Positions 98 to 30,307 of a stretch of 30,307 nt of DNA are shown here, piece after piece (within the stretch, counting starts at the first letter, position 1; each line of letters opens with the position of its first letter). The notes under the pieces were generated by a model. That model was not told where the DNA came from. It ran no database searches and saw only the letters and a list, made by a program, of their open reading frames with translations. The position numbers were made by a program, and so were the translations under genes. The stretch is from IMG/VR virus record IMGVR_UViG_638341084_000020; one strand, written 5' to 3'. The stretch comes from a virus (lineage: Duplodnaviria > Heunggongvirae > Uroviricota > Caudoviricetes).

Positions 98-672
98 CTA
101 CGGTAGGGCTGGCCATTCAATATCCGGTGCAGTTGATGTATCAACACGGTTCAGCAACACCCGATACTTTTTCCAGGCTTCCAGCAACAAGGTTTCTTCC
201 TCCGTTGCGATCTCCAGATCCACAGCATCCTGAAGCGGCGCAATATGCTCACTGGCTACCTGCATCAGGCTGTTTTTTGTTTCTTCCGCCTCCCGGATCC
301 GGAACAGTTTTTCTGCTTCCGTATCCTTCACCCAGGCTGTGCCGTTCCACTTCTGATATCCCCTCCCGGCGATAACCAGGTAACATTTTCCGGTAACGGA
401 CCGAGTTCAGAAATAAATAACGCGTCGCCGGAAGCCACGTCATAAACCGTTTTACCCCGATGATCTTCAACGAGATGCCACGATGCCTCATCACTGTTGA
501 AAACAGCCACGAAGCCTGCCGGAATATCTGGCGGTGCAATATCGATACTGTTTGCTGGCAGACCTGTATGAGGCGGAATATATGCGTCACCTTCACCAAT
601 AAATTCATTAGTTCCTGCCAGCAGATTATAAATTTTTATGGTCCGTGGTTGTTCACTCATTCTGAATGCCAT
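98..672 (-). pseudogene. tfa: Tail fibre assembly protein Tfa, split by an apparent -1 frameshift (N-terminal part 328..672, C-terminal part 98..331)
   Basis: Two adjacent minus-strand ORFs in different frames (114 aa and 77 aa). Together they total about 191 aa, the usual Tfa length. The first matches the Tfa N-terminus ([24 protein letters not shown]...) up to ...LSPGG, the second matches the Tfa C-terminus (...[16 protein letters not shown]...). The reading frame changes around 355..365. Confidence 0.65.
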
Positions 673-3587
673 TATGCAAGCCTCACAATGTAGTTAAATG
701 CGATGTTTTTGACAGTGTTTTCCGCGTTACCAGCAGCGTTAACGGTGATGGTGTGTCCATGTGAGCCAATCGCAACAGAGTGCGTATGAGCACCAATACC
801 GACAGTATGTGCGTGAGCACCTGCAGATGCAGCTGTGCCGCTGACACTATGAGTGTGCGCTCCTGCAGCACTTGTATTCACACTGGCCGCAGACACTACC
901 TTATGTACTGACCCATTTTGTGACCACTGGCTGACTGCTGATGCGCCTGTGACACTATGAGTATGGTTTCCGGCACTTGCGGCTGTACCGCTCACACTGT
1001 GCGTATGCGCCCCGGTGTTATTCGTGGATTTAGTGCCGTAATCAAACGACGATGTGGTTTTCGTCCCCAAATCCGTACTGGATGCACTGGCGCTGTGGGT
1101 GTGCGATTTAATGCCGTCCTGTTCCTGAGACAATACGGCCCGACCACTGGCAGGTTTGCCCTTAATCGTCCAGCCACGCATATCAGGGATCACGCCTGAC
1201 GGATAAGCGGTTGCAAGTTTCGGGTAAGCGGATTTGTCAAAAGTCTGCCCCTGCATCAGGGCATAACCAGACGGAACGGTATCTGATGGCCACGGGATTG
1301 GTGCGCCAGGCGGATAAAACTGCTCTGATGGTGTATAGAGTGAATAAACTGTACCGTCCGTTAACCCTTCCGGCTTATTAGCAGAATATGCTGGTGACGT
1401 ATGAATAGTCACGCTGGCATTACTGGTATAATCCCATTGAATATTTACACCAGTCGCATAATTTCCGATTGCAACGTAAATATCGTAAGTATCACCAGAT
1501 GTATTGACCCAGGCAAAATTTGTAAACCCTGTCGATGTGCGCTGCCATAAAGCACCAGTAATCCCCTTCGGATTACCATTACCTGCACGCAAAACAAGTT
1601 CAGATATACCTGCCTGTTGAGGTGACCCCACGTTAAATCCCGCGCCACCAATCAACGTAATTGAAACAACAGAACTCGCCTGTGGCATGGTTACCGTTGC
1701 TAATTTGAACCAACCAGCACCACCGCTGAATGACATTGTTGTTGAGTTAAGCGTACCAATATCTTTCGGCGTCAGTGTTATATCCGCTGAAAGCGCCTTA
1801 CCATTCACCTTACGGGCAGAAGGTACCCGACCATTCGCATTATCATTAGCTGCTTTCACTGCTTTCGGTGTCGCGGCAAGCGTTTCAGATGCGCTGTTGG
1901 TTGCACTACTGAGCTGGACAATTCCTTTTTGTGCTGTCGTAGCGTCCTGAGCAGTATATTTCCCGTTAGCAAGGTCATAGGCTGCCTTTACCGACTTTGG
2001 CGTTGCCGCCAGCATTTCAGATGTGCTGTTGGTCGCGCTGCTGAGCTGAACTATCCCTTTCTGTGCTGTCGTTGCATCCTGTGCGGTGTATTTCCCGTTA
2101 GCCAGCTCATACGCGGCCTTAACGGCTTTTGGCGTTGCCGCCAGTGACTCGGAAGTGCTGTTAGTCGCACTGCTGAGCTGTACTATCCCCTTTTTCGTCG
2201 TGCTCGCATCCTCAAGCGCCACGGCGGATGCAATATCCTCTGCCCGTTTTGCCGCTGTCTCGGCGCGCGTTGCCGCGGATTCCGCCGTACTTTTGCTCTG
2301 AGCTGCCGCCGTCGCACTGCCAGCTGCCTCTGTCGCCTTCGTGGATGCCGTCGTGGCGCTGCCCTTTGCTGCTGACGCCTGTCTGGTCGCCTCATCTTTT
2401 GAAGCAGACGCAGATGATGCCGATGACGCCGCCGAACTGGCGGACGATGCGGCAGCCGTTTTTGAGGATTCTGCGCTGGTTTCCGACGCTTTCGCGTTCG
2501 TCTCGGATGTCTTCGCTGCGGAAGCAGACCTCGCTGCTGCGCTGGCCTGTTCAGTGGCTTCGCCAGCCTTCGTTGTGGCTGTTGAAGCGGACGATGCGGC
2601 GCTTTCTGCCGATTTTCCGGCAGCGGTGGCACTGGCTGAGGCCTGCCCGGCACTTGTTGACGCGGCACTGGCAGACGACGCAGCCGCTGTTTTTGAGCCT
2701 GCCGCAGCTGAGGCGCTCTGTCCCGCTGCCGTCTCAGAAGACCTGGCGTTCGTCTCGGACGTTTTTGCCGCCTTCGCGGAATTTGCTGCCGCCGTTGCCG
2801 AGGAAGCTGCGCTACTGGCGCTCGAGGATGCGTTCGTTTCTGATGATTTTGCCGCCTCTTTTGAAGCCGACGCATCCCGGGCTGAGGTGGCAGCTTCTGA
2901 CGCTTTCGTGGTCGCGGTGGATGCAGAAGTGGCGGCTGATTGTTGTGACGCTGCAGCATTCGTTTCTGACGTTTTCGCGGCAGCGGCACTGGTAGCTGCC
3001 GCGCTTTTTGAGGACTCTGCAGCGGCAGCACTTTTTTCCGCTTCAGTGGCCTTTGTTGATGCCGTTCCTGCGCTGGAAGACGCTGACTGAGCCGACGAAG
3101 CGGCCTGTCCGGCTGACGTGCTGGCTGCACGTGCTGAATCTGCAGCATCAGTCGCATGGGTTGCCGCCTCACGGGCAGATGTGCCGGCATCACTGGCTGA
3201 CTTCTTCGCGGCTGCCGTGTTCTGTGCCACCACGGACGCGTTACGCGCCACCTCTTCCACCATCTGTTCAAAACGGCGCAGTGCCTCCGGACGGGCATCA
3301 TCCTCCGTCATGGCACCGAGAAAATCATTCAGCGTACCGGGTTGAGAATCTTCATACACGGTGATGGTCCCGGCATGTGACGGCGGGAATCCTTCCACCA
3401 ACAGAATAACGCTGTACTGCCCGTACTCAACGTCCATGCTGTAACGCCCGGCTTCATCCGGATTTTCTGAGGCCAGCGTGTTCACCACCACCGTGGTGCT
3501 GTTACGTTTTGCTTTCAGCTGGATTGTGCAGTTCTGTACCGGTTTTCCTGTGCCGTCTTTCAGTACACCTGAAATCTTTACTGCCAT
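672..3587 (-). CDS. stf: Side tail fibre protein Stf (972 aa from the ATG at 3587; track ORF begins 2 codons earlier at a GTG)
   Basis: N-terminus [26 protein letters not shown] and C-terminus ...[29 protein letters not shown] match lambda Stf as I recall it. Internal Ala/Ser-rich region, 44-aa tandem repeats and a His-rich GAHTHS repeat region near the C-terminus. GGGG-type ribosome-binding site precedes the ATG. Confidence 0.85.
1848..2192 (-). repeat. About 2.6 tandem copies of a 132-bp in-frame coding repeat inside stf (44-aa unit [44 protein letters not shown])
   Basis: Repeat copies begin at Stf track residues 468, 512 and 556 (period 44 aa = 132 bp); the third copy diverges after about 27 residues. 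Visible at DNA level as a near-identical 132-nt periodicity. Confidence 0.85.
2244..3221 (-). repeat. Low-complexity Ala/Ser/Thr-rich coding region of stf with reiterated short motifs ([19 protein letters not shown] and similar)
   Basis: Stf residues about 125-450 consist almost entirely of A, S, T, K, E, Q, G. The GC-rich DNA produces long spurious ORFs on both strands here. Confidence 0.7.
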
Positions 3588-4317: not shown

Positions 4318-7719
<3,402 letters not shown>

Positions 7720-10098: not shown

Positions 10099-12656
10099 CG
10101 TCCACCTCCGGAGAACAGGCCACCATCACGCATCTGTGTCTGAATTTCATCACGGGCACCCTTGCGGGCCATGTCATACACCGCCTTCAGAGCAGCCGGA
10201 CCTATCTGCCCGTTCGTGCCGTCGTTGTTAATCACCACATGGTTATTCTGCTCAAACGTCCCGGACGCCTGCGACCGGCTGTCTGCCATGCTGCCCGGTG
10301 TACCGACATAACCGCCGGTGGCATAGCCGCGCATCAGCCGGTAAAGATTCCCCACGCCAATCCGGCTGGTTGCCTCCTTCGTGAAGACAAACTCACCACG
10401 GTGAACAATCCCCGCTGGCTCATATTTGCCGCCGGTTCCCGTAAATCCTCCGGTTGCAAAATGGAATTTCGCCGCAGCGGCCTGAATGGCTGTACCGCCT
10501 GACGCGGATGCGCCGCCACCAACAGCCCCGCCAATGGCGCTGCCGATACTCCCGACAATCCCCACCATTGCCTGCTTAAGCAGAATTTCTGTCATCATGG
10601 ACAGCACGGAACGGGTGAAGCTGCGCCAGTTCTGCTCACTGCCGGTCAGCATCGCCGCCATATTCTGTGCAATACCATCAAAGGTCTGCGTGGCAGCACT
10701 TTTAACCTGCGACATACTGTCCGTGGCGCTCTCTTCCCACTCACTCCAGCCGGACTTCAGGCCTGCCATCCAGCTCCCGCGAAGCTGGTCTTCAGCCGCC
10801 CAGGTCTTTTTCTGCTCTGACATGACGTTATTCAGCGCCAGCGGATTATCGCCATACTGTTCCTTCAGGCGCTGTTCCGTGGCTTCCCGTTCTGCCTGCC
10901 GGTCAGTCAGCCCCCGGCTTTTCGCATCAATGGCGGCCCGTTTTGCCCGTTGCTGCTGTGCGAATTTATCCGCCTGCTGCGCCAGCGCGTTCAGGCGCTC
11001 CTGATACGTAACCTTGTCGCCAAGTGCAGCCAGCTGGCGTTTGTACTCCAGCGTCTCATCTTTATGCGCCAGCAGGGATTTCTCCTGTGCAGACAGCTGG
11101 CGACGTTGCGCCGCCTCCTCCAGTACCGCGAACTGACTCTCCGCCTTCCACAAATCCCGGCGCTGCTGGCTGATTTTCTCATTTGCTCCGGCATGCTTCT
11201 CCAGCGTCCGGAGTTCAGCCTGAAGCGTCAGCAGGGCAGCATGAGCACTGTCTTCCTGACGATCGCCCGCAGACACCTTCACGCCGGACTGTTTCGGCTT
11301 TTTCAGCGTCGCTTCATAATCCTTTTTCGCCGCCGCCATCAGCGTGTTGTAATCCGCCTGCAGGATTTTCCCGTCTTTCAGTGCCTTGTTCAGTTCTTCC
11401 TGACGGGCGGTATATTTCTCCAGCGGCGTCTGCAGCCGTTCGTAAGCCTTCTGCGCCTCTTCGGTATATTTCAGCCGTGACGCTTCGGTATCGCTCTGCT
11501 GCTGCGCATTTTTGTCCTGTTGAGTCTGCTGCTCAGCCTTCTTTCGGGCGGCTTCAAGCGCAAGACGGGCCTTTTCACGATCATCCCAGTAACGCGCCCG
11601 CGCTTCATCGTTAACAAAATAATCATCCTTGCGCAGATTCCAGATGTCGTCTGCTTTCTTAAACGCAGCCTCTGCCTTAATCAGCATCTCCTGCGCGGTA
11701 TCAGGACGACCGATATCCAGCACCGCATCCCACATGGATTTGAATGCCCGCGCAGTCCTGTCTGCCCAGGTCTCCAGCGTGCCCATGTTCTCTTTCAGGC
11801 GGCGGATCTGGTCATCAAACCCTTTCGTTGCGGCCTCGTTCGCCGCCTGCAATGCCCCGGCTTCATCGCCGGAACGCTGCAACTGAGCAACATACGCAAT
11901 CTGCTCCGTCGTCACGTTATGGAACTGGCGTGCCATCGCCGTCAGCCCCGACGTCGGGTCTGTGGTCAGCTTCCCGAAGGCTTCAGCGACCTTGTCCACC
12001 TCCACGCCGGATGCAGAGGAGAAACGCGCCACACTCTGGCTGATGGACGCAATCTGAGCCTCACCGCTTACCCCCGCCTTAACCAGTGCGCTGAGTGACT
12101 CGCTGGTCTGGTTAAACGTCAGCCCTGCCGCCTGCCCGGCTCTGGACAGGACCAGCATACGATCTGCCGTCAGTCCCGCCTGATTGCCGGAAAGGACCAG
12201 CGTTTTGTTGAAATCGGACAGGGTTGAGTTGCCCTGATACCAGGCATACGCCAGCGCACCGGTCGCCACCGCCAGCGAGGTGGCCCCCACCATCGGCAGG
12301 GTGATCGCACCGGCAAGCCCCCTGAACATGGGGATCATCCCGCCGAAGGAGTCCTTCACCTGCCCCCCCTGTTGCAGCAGGATCAGCCACGGACTTTGCC
12401 CGCCTGCAAGCTGCGTGGCCACGTCGGTGAACTGTGCAGGCAGCATACGCATGGCGGCTTTATACTGCCCGACGGAAATCCCCGCTTTCTGTGCAGCCAG
12501 CGCCTGTCGGCTCAGCGACTGTTCAACGACTGCCGCTGTTTTTTTCGCATCACTTTCCGTACCGGAAAAATGACGCCTGACTCTGGCCATCTGCTCGTCA
12601 AATCTGGCCGCATCCAGACTCAAATCAACGACCAGATCGCCTACCGGTTCAGCCAT
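10095..12656 (-). CDS. H: Tail tape measure protein H, 853 aa
   Basis: Same length as lambda H; MAEPVGDLVVDLSLDAARFDEQMARVRRHF... and Gly-rich C-terminal region match lambda H. Confidence 0.95.
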   Translation of the reverse strand: MAEPVGDLVVDLSLDAARFDEQMARVRRHFSGTESDAKKTAAVVEQSLSRQALAAQKAGISVGQYKAAMRMLPAQFTDVATQLAGGQSPWLILLQQGGQVKDSFGGMIPMFRGLAGAITLPMVGATSLAVATGALAYAWYQGNSTLSDFNKTLVLSGNQAGLTADRMLVLSRAGQAAGLTFNQTSESLSALVKAGVSGEAQIASISQSVARFSSASGVEVDKVAEAFGKLTTDPTSGLTAMARQFHNVTTEQIAYVAQLQRSGDEAGALQAANEAATKGFDDQIRRLKENMGTLETWADRTARAFKSMWDAVLDIGRPDTAQEMLIKAEAAFKKADDIWNLRKDDYFVNDEARARYWDDREKARLALEAARKKAEQQTQQDKNAQQQSDTEASRLKYTEEAQKAYERLQTPLEKYTARQEELNKALKDGKILQADYNTLMAAAKKDYEATLKKPKQSGVKVSAGDRQEDSAHAALLTLQAELRTLEKHAGANEKISQQRRDLWKAESQFAVLEEAAQRRQLSAQEKSLLAHKDETLEYKRQLAALGDKVTYQERLNALAQQADKFAQQQRAKRAAIDAKSRGLTDRQAEREATEQRLKEQYGDNPLALNNVMSEQKKTWAAEDQLRGSWMAGLKSGWSEWEESATDSMSQVKSAATQTFDGIAQNMAAMLTGSEQNWRSFTRSVLSMMTEILLKQAMVGIVGSIGSAIGGAVGGGASASGGTAIQAAAAKFHFATGGFTGTGGKYEPAGIVHRGEFVFTKEATSRIGVGNLYRLMRGYATGGYVGTPGSMADSRSQASGTFEQNNHVVINNDGTNGQIGPAALKAVYDMARKGARDEIQTQMRDGGLFSGGGR

Positions 12657-16037: not shown

Positions 16038-17099
16038 TTACGCCAGTTGTACGGACACGAACTCATCAGGGTCAGCCAGCAGCATCAGCGGTGCTGACTG
16101 AATCATGGTGAACTCACGCGCCGGATCGCCGGTGGTCACCCAGTTTTTCGGGTAACGGGCAGAGGCGTTAATGCCTTCGCGCTGTGCGTCCGCATCCTGA
16201 ATGCAGCCATAGGTGCGCAGACCGCGTGCCTGAGTGTTCCCCAGCACCATCGTGTTGTCCGGCAGGAAGTTCTTTTTGACGCCGTTTTCCACGTACTGTC
16301 CGGAATACACGACGATGGCCACATCGCCATACATCCCCTTATAGGACACCGCTTTACCTAGGTCTTTCACCGCTGTCTCCAGCTCGGAATTAGAGCCACG
16401 ACGGGTATCCAGCTTCTCCTTGACGGCTTTGAAGGAACGGAACAGCGCCCAGCCTTTCGGATCGAACACGATGATATTCACCACACCGCTGGCGTTCAGC
16501 GCGTAGGCTTCGATATCGTCGGTCGGGTCATACGTGGACTTGTCACGCTTGCTCCACTCCGTGCCGCCGGACTGCGTGATGTTATTCTCCTCACTGCGGC
16601 CCATATCCACCTCAACCGGATCGAAGGCTTCACCGGTCATGGTGTATTTGCCCTTAAGCACGGCAGAAACTGCCTGCATCTCTTCGACCTGAGCAATGGC
16701 CAGCTCTTCGTCACGCATGTTCTGCATGATGATGCGACGGCGGCGGTAAGCCGGGTCCGCCAGATTCTGCGGATCTTCATCCGGCAGGCGACGCAGGGTC
16801 ATCTGCGGATCTTCATCCGGCAGGCGACGCAGGGTCATCTGCGGATTCACTTCATGCTTCGGCTTGACATATCCCGGCGTAAATTCAGAGGTGGAGCCGC
16901 CACGGGAACGGATAACCTCACCGGAAACAATCGGCGAAACGTACAGCGCCATGTTTACCAGTCCCGGAATTTGTGAGAGATAGACTTTCTCCGTGGTGAA
17001 GGGATAGCTCTCACGGAAAAAGAGACGCAGAAACAGCGGATCAAACTTAAATTTCTGCTCATTTGCCGCCAGCAGTTGGGCGGTTGTGTACATCGACAT
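16038..17099 (-). CDS. E: Major capsid protein E, 353 aa, carrying an in-frame 12-aa tandem duplication relative to lambda E (341 aa)
   Basis: MSMYTTAQLLAANEQKFKFDPLFLRLFFRESYPFTTEKVYLSQIPGLVNMALYVSPIVSGEV... matches lambda E throughout, except that MTLRRLPDEDPQ occurs twice in tandem. Confidence 0.92.
   Translation of the reverse strand: MSMYTTAQLLAANEQKFKFDPLFLRLFFRESYPFTTEKVYLSQIPGLVNMALYVSPIVSGEVIRSRGGSTSEFTPGYVKPKHEVNPQMTLRRLPDEDPQMTLRRLPDEDPQNLADPAYRRRRIIMQNMRDEELAIAQVEEMQAVSAVLKGKYTMTGEAFDPVEVDMGRSEENNITQSGGTEWSKRDKSTYDPTDDIEAYALNASGVVNIIVFDPKGWALFRSFKAVKEKLDTRRGSNSELETAVKDLGKAVSYKGMYGDVAIVVYSGQYVENGVKKNFLPDNTMVLGNTQARGLRTYGCIQDADAQREGINASARYPKNWVTTGDPAREFTMIQSAPLMLLADPDEFVSVQLA
16767..16838 (-). 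repeat. Perfect 36-bp direct tandem duplication inside E (encodes MTLRRLPDEDPQ twice)
   Basis: Two identical adjacent 36-nt units (plus-strand unit ctgcggatcttcatccggcaggcgacgcagggtcat) corresponding to E track residues 97-108 and 109-120. Confidence 0.9.
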
Positions 17100-27067: not shown

Positions 27068-28165
27068 ATGAAAAAATTAACAGTGGCAATTTCTGCTGTA
27101 GCTGCATCAGTACTGATGGCGATGTCTGCTCAGGCAGCTGAAATTTATAATAAAGACAGTAACAAGCTGGATCTGTACGGGAAAGTTAATGCCAAGCACT
27201 ACTTTTCCTCTAACGATGCAGATGATGGTGATACTACTTATGTTCGTCTGGGCTTCAAAGGCGAAACCCAAATCAACGATCAGCTGACTGGTTTCGGTCA
27301 GTGGGAATATGAATTCAAAGGCAACCGCGCTGAATCTCAAGGTTCCTCCAAAGACAAAACCCGTCTTGCATTTGCAGGCCTGAAATTCGGTGACTACGGC
27401 TCAATCGATTACGGCCGTAACTACGGTGTAGCATACGACATCGGTGCGTGGACTGACGTTCTGCCAGAATTCGGTGGCGATACCTGGACCCAAACAGATG
27501 TGTTCATGACTGGTCGCACCACTGGTGTTGCAACCTATCGTAACAACGACTTCTTTGGTCTGGTTGATGGTCTGAACTTTGCTGCTCAGTACCAAGGCAA
27601 AAACGATCGTAGCGATTTCGATAACTACACCGAAGGTAACGGTGATGGCTTCGGTTTCTCTGCTACCTATGAATACGAAGGATTCGGTATCGGTGCAACT
27701 TATGCGAAATCTGATCGTACCGACACTCAAGTTAATGCAGGGAAAGTTCTTCCTGAAGTATTTGCTTCCGGTAAAAATGCAGAAGTTTGGGCCGCAGGTC
27801 TGAAATATGACGCTAACAACATTTACCTGGCCACTACCTATTCTGAAACCCAGAATATGACTGTATTTGCTGATCACTTCGTTGCTAATAAAGCTCAAAA
27901 CTTCGAAGCTGTTGCACAATATCAGTTCGATTTCGGTCTGCGTCCGTCCGTTGCTTACCTGCAATCTAAAGGTAAGGATCTTGGAGTATGGGGCGATCAG
28001 GACTTAGTCAAATATGTTGATGTAGGTGCAACCTATTACTTCAACAAAAATATGTCTACTTTCGTTGATTACAAAATCAACCTGCTTGACAAAAATGACT
28101 TCACTAAAGCACTCGGTGTAAGCACTGATGACATCGTTGCTGTAGGTCTGGTTTACCAGTTCTAA
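27068..28165 (+). CDS. nmpC: Prophage-encoded general porin (OmpC/OmpF/PhoE superfamily; NmpC/Lc type), 365 aa, intact
   Basis: Signal peptide [23 protein letters not shown], then [24 protein letters not shown]...; C-terminal ...VAVGLVYQF (terminal Phe) typical of 16-strand porins; AAGGG ribosome-binding site; sits between Q and S on the opposite strand, as nmpC does in DLP12 and lc in PA-2. Gene symbol is by analogy and not certain. Confidence 0.85.
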
Positions 28166-29752: not shown

Positions 29753-30307
29753 TCAATGAACGGTATCGAGCAGCTTTAACAGCTCAGGGAATCGGGATTC
29801 GAAGAAATGCGGCTGTGTCTCGCGCGGATTTGCGGGACTGGTGATGTTCTTGCCGAACATGCAACCTTTCGCTGTCAGCGACCAGAATTTTTTGATGTTG
29901 TTAATCGCTGTACGGCTGTATCGTTCGCGCTGCTCGACGATCCCCAGTTTCACCATCTAGTGATATGCCTGATTAGCCGTCAGGCGTATACCATACTGTT
30001 TCAGCAGTGCACTCAGTGACAGTGTCGGGCGACTTGAGCCATCGTGTGCATCAGCAGGAGCATCAATGGCATAGCGCGGTGCCAGATTCGGTAAGCCAAC
30101 AGCCTCCTGGAGTTTCTGACAGGCACCAAGCACTGAAGAGTTAGACAGGTTTAACTCCCGGCGCATAAAGTCCAGCAGGATCACGCCAGCCTGCATCTTG
30201 TCAGCAGCCTGTCCGGATAATTTTTCCGGTGCGCTGGTTACCATATCGAAAGTACGGATCACCTTCAGATGGAATGACGGGCTGATCCACATTGCATAGG
30301 CATACAC
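29753..30307 (-). pseudogene. Putative antirepressor-type regulatory protein (KilAC/Ant-like C-terminal region), 5' end outside the window, interrupted by a single in-frame TAG at 29957..29959
   Basis: ORFs 29957..30307 and 29753..29956 are in the same frame and separated only by one TAG; the downstream ORF begins at the ATG directly after the stop with no convincing ribosome-binding site; ...LLKQYGIRLTANQAYH * MVKLGIVEQRERYSRTAINNIKKFWSLTAKG reads like one continuous domain. Confidence 0.4.

Follow-up and report, generated by a model that had tools for sequence, protein, structure and literature searches.

The tfa-stf locus and its reading frames

The window analyzed here is a 30,307-nucleotide stretch of viral DNA (Caudoviricetes; IMG/VR record IMGVR_UViG_638341084_000020) that carries, near its beginning and on the minus strand, a tail fibre assembly gene (tfa) together with its cognate side tail fibre gene, stf (Table 1). 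The stf TAA and the tfa ATG share one base at window position 672 (TAATG), as in lambda orf-314/orf-194, and tfa lies directly downstream of the fibre gene on the same strand, as expected for this family.

Table 1. Positions, in the window, of the tfa and stf features and of the other genes and repeats described in the text
Feature	Position	Strand	Remarks
tfa, classed as a pseudogene (tail fibre assembly protein, lambda orf-194 type)	98..672	-	575 nt, versus 576 nt in the intact allele
ORF1	328..672	-	114 aa, ATG start; Tfa residues 1 to 104 (variable N-terminal domain included), then 10 out-of-frame residues and TGA
ORF2	98..331	-	77 aa, GTG start
C-terminal frame	98..358	-	Tfa residues 106 to 191, conserved helical part
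1-nt deletion site	359..360	.	Alignment to the intact allele and exact reconstruction
stf, cognate side tail fibre gene	672..3587 (or ..3593)	-	Intact; 971 to 973 aa; stop overlaps tfa ATG
Tandem repeat in stf	1879..2189	-	132-nt repeat, 2.4 copies, 82% matches
Repetitive section of stf	~2200..3300	-	Long, Ala/Ser rich
Major capsid gene	16038..17099	-	Lambda-E type
Tandem duplication in the major capsid gene	16766..16846		36 bp, perfect, 2.2 copies
Porin gene	27068..28165	+	Intact, 365 aa
KilA-N domain gene	29753..30307	-	
In-frame TGA in the KilA-N domain gene	29957..29959		

An earlier note on this DNA had read two abutting ORFs as the N- and C-terminal halves of a Tfa protein of about 190 aa. 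The ORF calls and their translations do place tfa in two abutting ORFs of different frames, and alignment to Tfa proteins bears the reading out: ORF1 matches lambda Tfa over residues 1 to 104 and diverges thereafter (E = 5e-78), while the frame read from position 358 matches residues 106 to 191 with 94% identity (E = 9e-59), and the allele of close relatives is 191 aa long. The C-terminal frame has its first start codon, a GTG (V115), at 331..329, where it overlaps with the ORF1 stop to form GTGA.

The second frame matches the Caudo_TAP profile (PF02413) with 122.7 bits (E = 1.4e-35), and the protein obtained by restoring the missing base matches it with 148.7 bits, against a cut-off of 22.1. 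This match spans residues 72 to 191, and the frameshift falls inside that span. No family was returned by a Pfam profile search with the 114-aa ORF1, whose identity rests on the direct alignment to lambda Tfa. The precomputed Pfam assignment of the ORF1 product is PF28596 (Caudo_TAP_N), which puts it in a separate family from the ORF2 product, assigned to Caudo_TAP. Instead of a single continuous ORF of about 190 aa in which the fibre-binding N-terminal part is fused to the conserved C-terminal one, the window holds ORFs of 114 and 77 aa. Because a 1-nt deletion at codon 105 splits the reading frame, we class the gene as a pseudogene; judged by its sequence, it belongs to the Caudo_TAP family as a pseudogene and not as a functional member.

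The upstream stf gene encodes a protein of 971 aa, compared with the 774 aa reported for lambda Stf, a difference of about 200 aa. Its long Ala/Ser-rich section gives rise to long spurious ORFs in other frames and strands, and the gene also contains a tandem repeat (Table 1). We considered whether stf is broken in two draft assemblies (L010 and L012), where it is annotated with breaks, and rejected this; the breaks are gene-calling differences, since the shared 3,672 nt align to the window free of gaps, with one mismatch in L010 and none in L012.

In the region next to the window (4580..7300 of locus L005), a gene for a recombinase of the resolvase/invertase family ends just before window position 1, facing tfa. 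Past this gene lie ydfK, ynaM, and a methyltransferase gene, followed by a 3' tfa remnant. When the surroundings of the recombinase were searched for the inverted repeats or crossover sites of an invertible fibre segment, none were found, and the only repeat, a direct one, was of the 3' end of tfa; there is therefore no sign of an invertible fibre segment.

A one-base deletion and its distribution

The change of frame had been placed by the earlier note at about 355..365, after LSPGG, and alignment with the intact allele, for which we used the 576-nt gene of strain 2011C-4251 as the reference, puts it within that interval, at 359/360. One A of the GAA codon 105 is gone from the minus strand (TT to T on the plus strand), which changes the intact GGGGAATATC to GGGGATATC in the window, directly after LSPGG. 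Removing one A from the 2011C-4251 allele reproduces the 575-nt tfa of the window exactly, with no other difference, and restoring the base yields the exact 191-aa allele of close relatives, a product identical to lambda Tfa (orf-194) at 184 of 191 positions (96%). The lost base lay within an AA dinucleotide rather than a long homopolymer. The stf protein accession, WP_000279113.1, is also annotated in strains with an intact tfa; because these strains share it and because tfa is otherwise identical, the deletion appears to be recent.

To map the distribution of the junction, a 71-nt probe across it was compared with the complete Escherichia coli genomes that hold the segment (n = 3,673; 6,366 places). 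Perfect matches occurred in two of them, FDAARGOS_1059 (Germany) and the O111:H2 strain 12A (UK), and in none of 38 phage records. These two are distinct strains: 12A carries IS2 in ompT, and the peptidase and porin accessions differ between them. We also examined ten more loci, from draft or read-derived assemblies of other projects (one of them a read-derived Logan assembly). All ten have the deleted junction, and their tfa is the same as that of the window, save for ambiguous N bases in two. The exact 114-aa product was found on 39 contigs, in 78 blocks of the collection, with source names that include DEC12A and E128010. The window itself represents a further strain, which differs from both complete genomes by 10 to 11 substitutions and a 36-bp duplication. 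RefSeq annotation already records the frameshift: in both complete genomes (NZ_CP066032 and NZ_CP077479), PGAP gives the identical sequence the label “tail fiber assembly protein, frameshifted.”

Among assembly errors, single-base indels are the most frequent, and the earlier note had allowed for either a real disruption of tfa at this site or a sequencing error in a gene that is truly intact. The chance of the latter now seems vanishingly small. The same deletion comes from different laboratories and countries in the two complete genomes and again in the ten assemblies, and close relatives sequenced by the same means have the intact allele. Because the junction recurs across independent assemblies and the lost base is not in a homopolymer run, we regard an artefact as excluded for practical purposes and the disruption as real.

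A Tfa that naturally ends near residue 114, which the earlier note had named as evidence that would count against a frameshift, was also considered and rejected. The intact 191-aa protein is present on at least 1000 contigs, and its cluster has 1,839 members, with listed sequences of 184 to 194 aa. In the cluster of the truncated product, nearly all of the listed sequences of 99 to 118 aa are described as “partial” by at least one source.

Prophage site, other lesions, and strain differences

The prophage is flanked by ompT/envY and tRNA-Arg; PGAP gives its genes the DLP12 names nohD, essD, rrrD, rzpD, quuD, and bor. The annotation shows a complete head and tail module. We also detected lesions outside tfa. 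The KilA-N domain gene at the end of the window contains an in-frame TGA (Table 1) and is annotated with an “internal stop” in related complete genomes, which makes it a second lesion in the prophage, and a frameshifted hypothetical gene is annotated in the same prophage. In FDAARGOS_1059 the int gene beside tRNA-Arg is split by the IS66-family element IS679 (L019 1613..5488, outside the window), and excision of the prophage has therefore probably been lost in that strain.

The major capsid gene of the window contains a perfect 36-bp tandem duplication that adds 12 residues in frame (PQMTLRRLPDED twice) to the lambda-E-type capsid protein. This duplication is missing from both complete genomes that carry the tfa deletion. 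Since the exact 353-aa protein is found on 6 draft contigs, the duplication is taken to be real and to mark a sublineage. Of the 10 to 11 substitutions between the window and the two complete genomes, five lie within the tape measure gene or close to it, at positions 10695, 10704, 10774, 11217 (tape measure gene), and 13480; at four of the five the window has A and the others have T. The intact porin gene is flanked by the antiterminator gene quuD and the lysis genes of the prophage. FDAARGOS_1059 and 12A have different accessions for its protein, and at 28098 the window differs from FDAARGOS_1059 by a substitution.

Consequences for the side fibre and comparison with known systems

Tfa-type chaperones are modular: the N-terminal domain is variable and binds the distal fibre, and the C-terminal domain, helical and conserved, serves trimerisation and assembly (PMC9608196; PMC7291167). 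The side fibre depends on both stf and tfa, and lom-stf-tfa is dispensable for plaque formation by lambda (PMC10695390); laboratory lambda is fibre-less owing to a frameshift in stf (PMC12617516).

We consider it very probable that the gene described here is a recent tfa pseudogene that arose by the loss of one A and was inherited within a small lineage of E. coli, O111:H2 strains among them. According to this proposal, codon 105 (GAA) would have lost the base in a prophage resembling lambda at the tRNA-Arg/ompT (DLP12) site, and the mutation would then have been passed down the lineage. Translation from the normal start would give 104 native residues and 10 wrong ones before a stop codon; since the frameshift is at codon 105 and the part that resembles Mu TfaU begins at residue 126, this primary product would lack the whole conserved C-terminal helical region. 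Without linkage between its N- and C-terminal parts, Tfa should leave the Stf side fibre unable to assemble, and any particles would be expected to resemble those of laboratory lambda, infectious via J and slower to adsorb. The earlier note had likewise suggested that the side fibre may not fold unless it is helped by a chaperone in trans, which is a reasonable expectation. The prophage, with its other lesions, is decaying anyway. The most likely outcome is thus a fibre-less phenotype that has no consequence for an already defective prophage, with the loss of the chaperone predicted from sequence.

The split in tfa is a true lineage-marking mutation that could mark the O111:H2-related clade. 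The side-fibre module of the DLP12-site prophage is probably non-functional in this lineage, as one of several lesions. The proposal calls for no new mechanism and describes ordinary prophage decay.

An alternative hypothesis is that the gene is dead and another Tfa encoded elsewhere in the genome acts in trans, so that fibres are still made. A DNA search of distant sensitivity in both complete genomes returned six places for the whole gene and two for the N-terminal half, which, beyond tfa itself, leaves five places similar to the whole gene and one similar to the N-terminal half. Lambda Tfa can replace T4 gp38, which points to some cross-function in the family. At 85% identity or more, however, tfa occupies a single place in each of these genomes, with no second copy, and the nearby remnant represents the 3' end alone, a 146-nt direct repeat (82% identity) of window positions ~120..265. 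The remnant corresponds to the part of the gene that follows the frameshift and would therefore not allow the lesion to be repaired by recombination. The N-terminal domain of these chaperones, moreover, is described as fibre specific (PMC9608196). We consider it unlikely that the loss is made good in this way.

Frameshifts that remove fibres appear readily, and structured media favour them (PMC2762979). It could be proposed that the deletion was selected because the slower adsorption that comes with loss of the side fibres helps a still-active phage in the structured gut or, as a variant of the same idea, that the allele encodes a working two-piece chaperone coupled through GTGA. Either version strikes us as distinctly improbable. 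If selection did act, nature would have repeated the lambda PaPa event, this time in the chaperone gene.

The two-piece arrangement deserves separate consideration. The break separates the N-terminal part from the conserved C-terminal one, lying some 20 residues ahead of the region that aligns to Mu TfaU, and V115, the GTG of ORF2, overlaps the stop of ORF1, so that two domain-sized polypeptides could in principle arise; the different precomputed Pfam families of the two products are consistent with such a division. ORF1 and a C-terminal fragment initiated separately at GTG 331 might then keep some chaperone activity between them. Against this, no Shine-Dalgarno-like sequence was found within the 18 nt before the GTG, the published model wants the binding domain covalently joined to the trimerising domain (PMC9608196), and the allele is confined to one small lineage, with no signal of selection for the arrangement. 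We rate residual activity of this kind as very unlikely.

A programmed -1 ribosomal frameshift that restores full-length Tfa was rejected as having a negligible chance of being correct. Passage from ORF1 to the C-terminal frame requires a -1 shift, and both frames are open over 79 nt (window 406..328), an overlap that could let such a shift join them; but a scan of 406..328 in every frame showed no slippery heptamer of the form X XXY YYZ. The two-frame arrangement is not conserved among relatives: it is present in 2 of the 3,673 genomes and in none of the 38 phage records, the gene being in a single frame in the other 3,671 genomes and in all 38 phage records, and because the allele differs from the intact one by the deletion alone, no recoding signal has co-evolved with it.

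A recent pseudogene thus remains the preferred reading, and among its closest known counterparts is lambda Tfa (orf-194, NP_040605.1). The repaired product is nearly identical to it (184/191), matches Caudo_TAP, and follows stf with the same one-base TAATG overlap. Here, in contrast, the absence of one base at codon 105 splits the ORF; in this prophage type the intact allele is 191 aa long rather than the 194 aa of lambda, and the 971-aa product of the upstream stf includes a long repeat region rich in Ala/Ser. The stf of lambda PaPa (orf-401/orf-314) is similar in that a frameshift struck a lambda-type stf-tfa module, with loss of the side fibres there and viability unaffected. In lambda PaPa, however, the fibre gene was hit and the mutation arose in laboratory stocks, whereas here the chaperone gene was hit in a natural prophage lineage.

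Cryptic prophages of E. coli K-12 offer another comparison, since their Tfa-family pseudogenes include tfaD/tfaX of DLP12. The prophage described here shares with DLP12 the site beside tRNA-Arg and ompT-envY, the gene names nohD, essD, rrrD, and quuD, and a 3' tfa remnant downstream. It still has a full head and tail module, and its tfa carries a single point lesion, which would set it apart from the cryptic K-12 prophages.

A further comparison is with the tail fibre assembly protein U (TfaU) of phage Mu (PDB 5YVQ). Residues 126 to 191 of the intact allele align to residues 112 to 174 of TfaU (E = 2.8e-9), and the two proteins are alike in their modular domain logic (PMC9608196). The likeness does not extend to the N-terminal domain, in which no sequence similarity is detectable; the Mu fibre binds LPS, and the lambda-type fibre binds OmpC (PMC12617516; PMC7291167).
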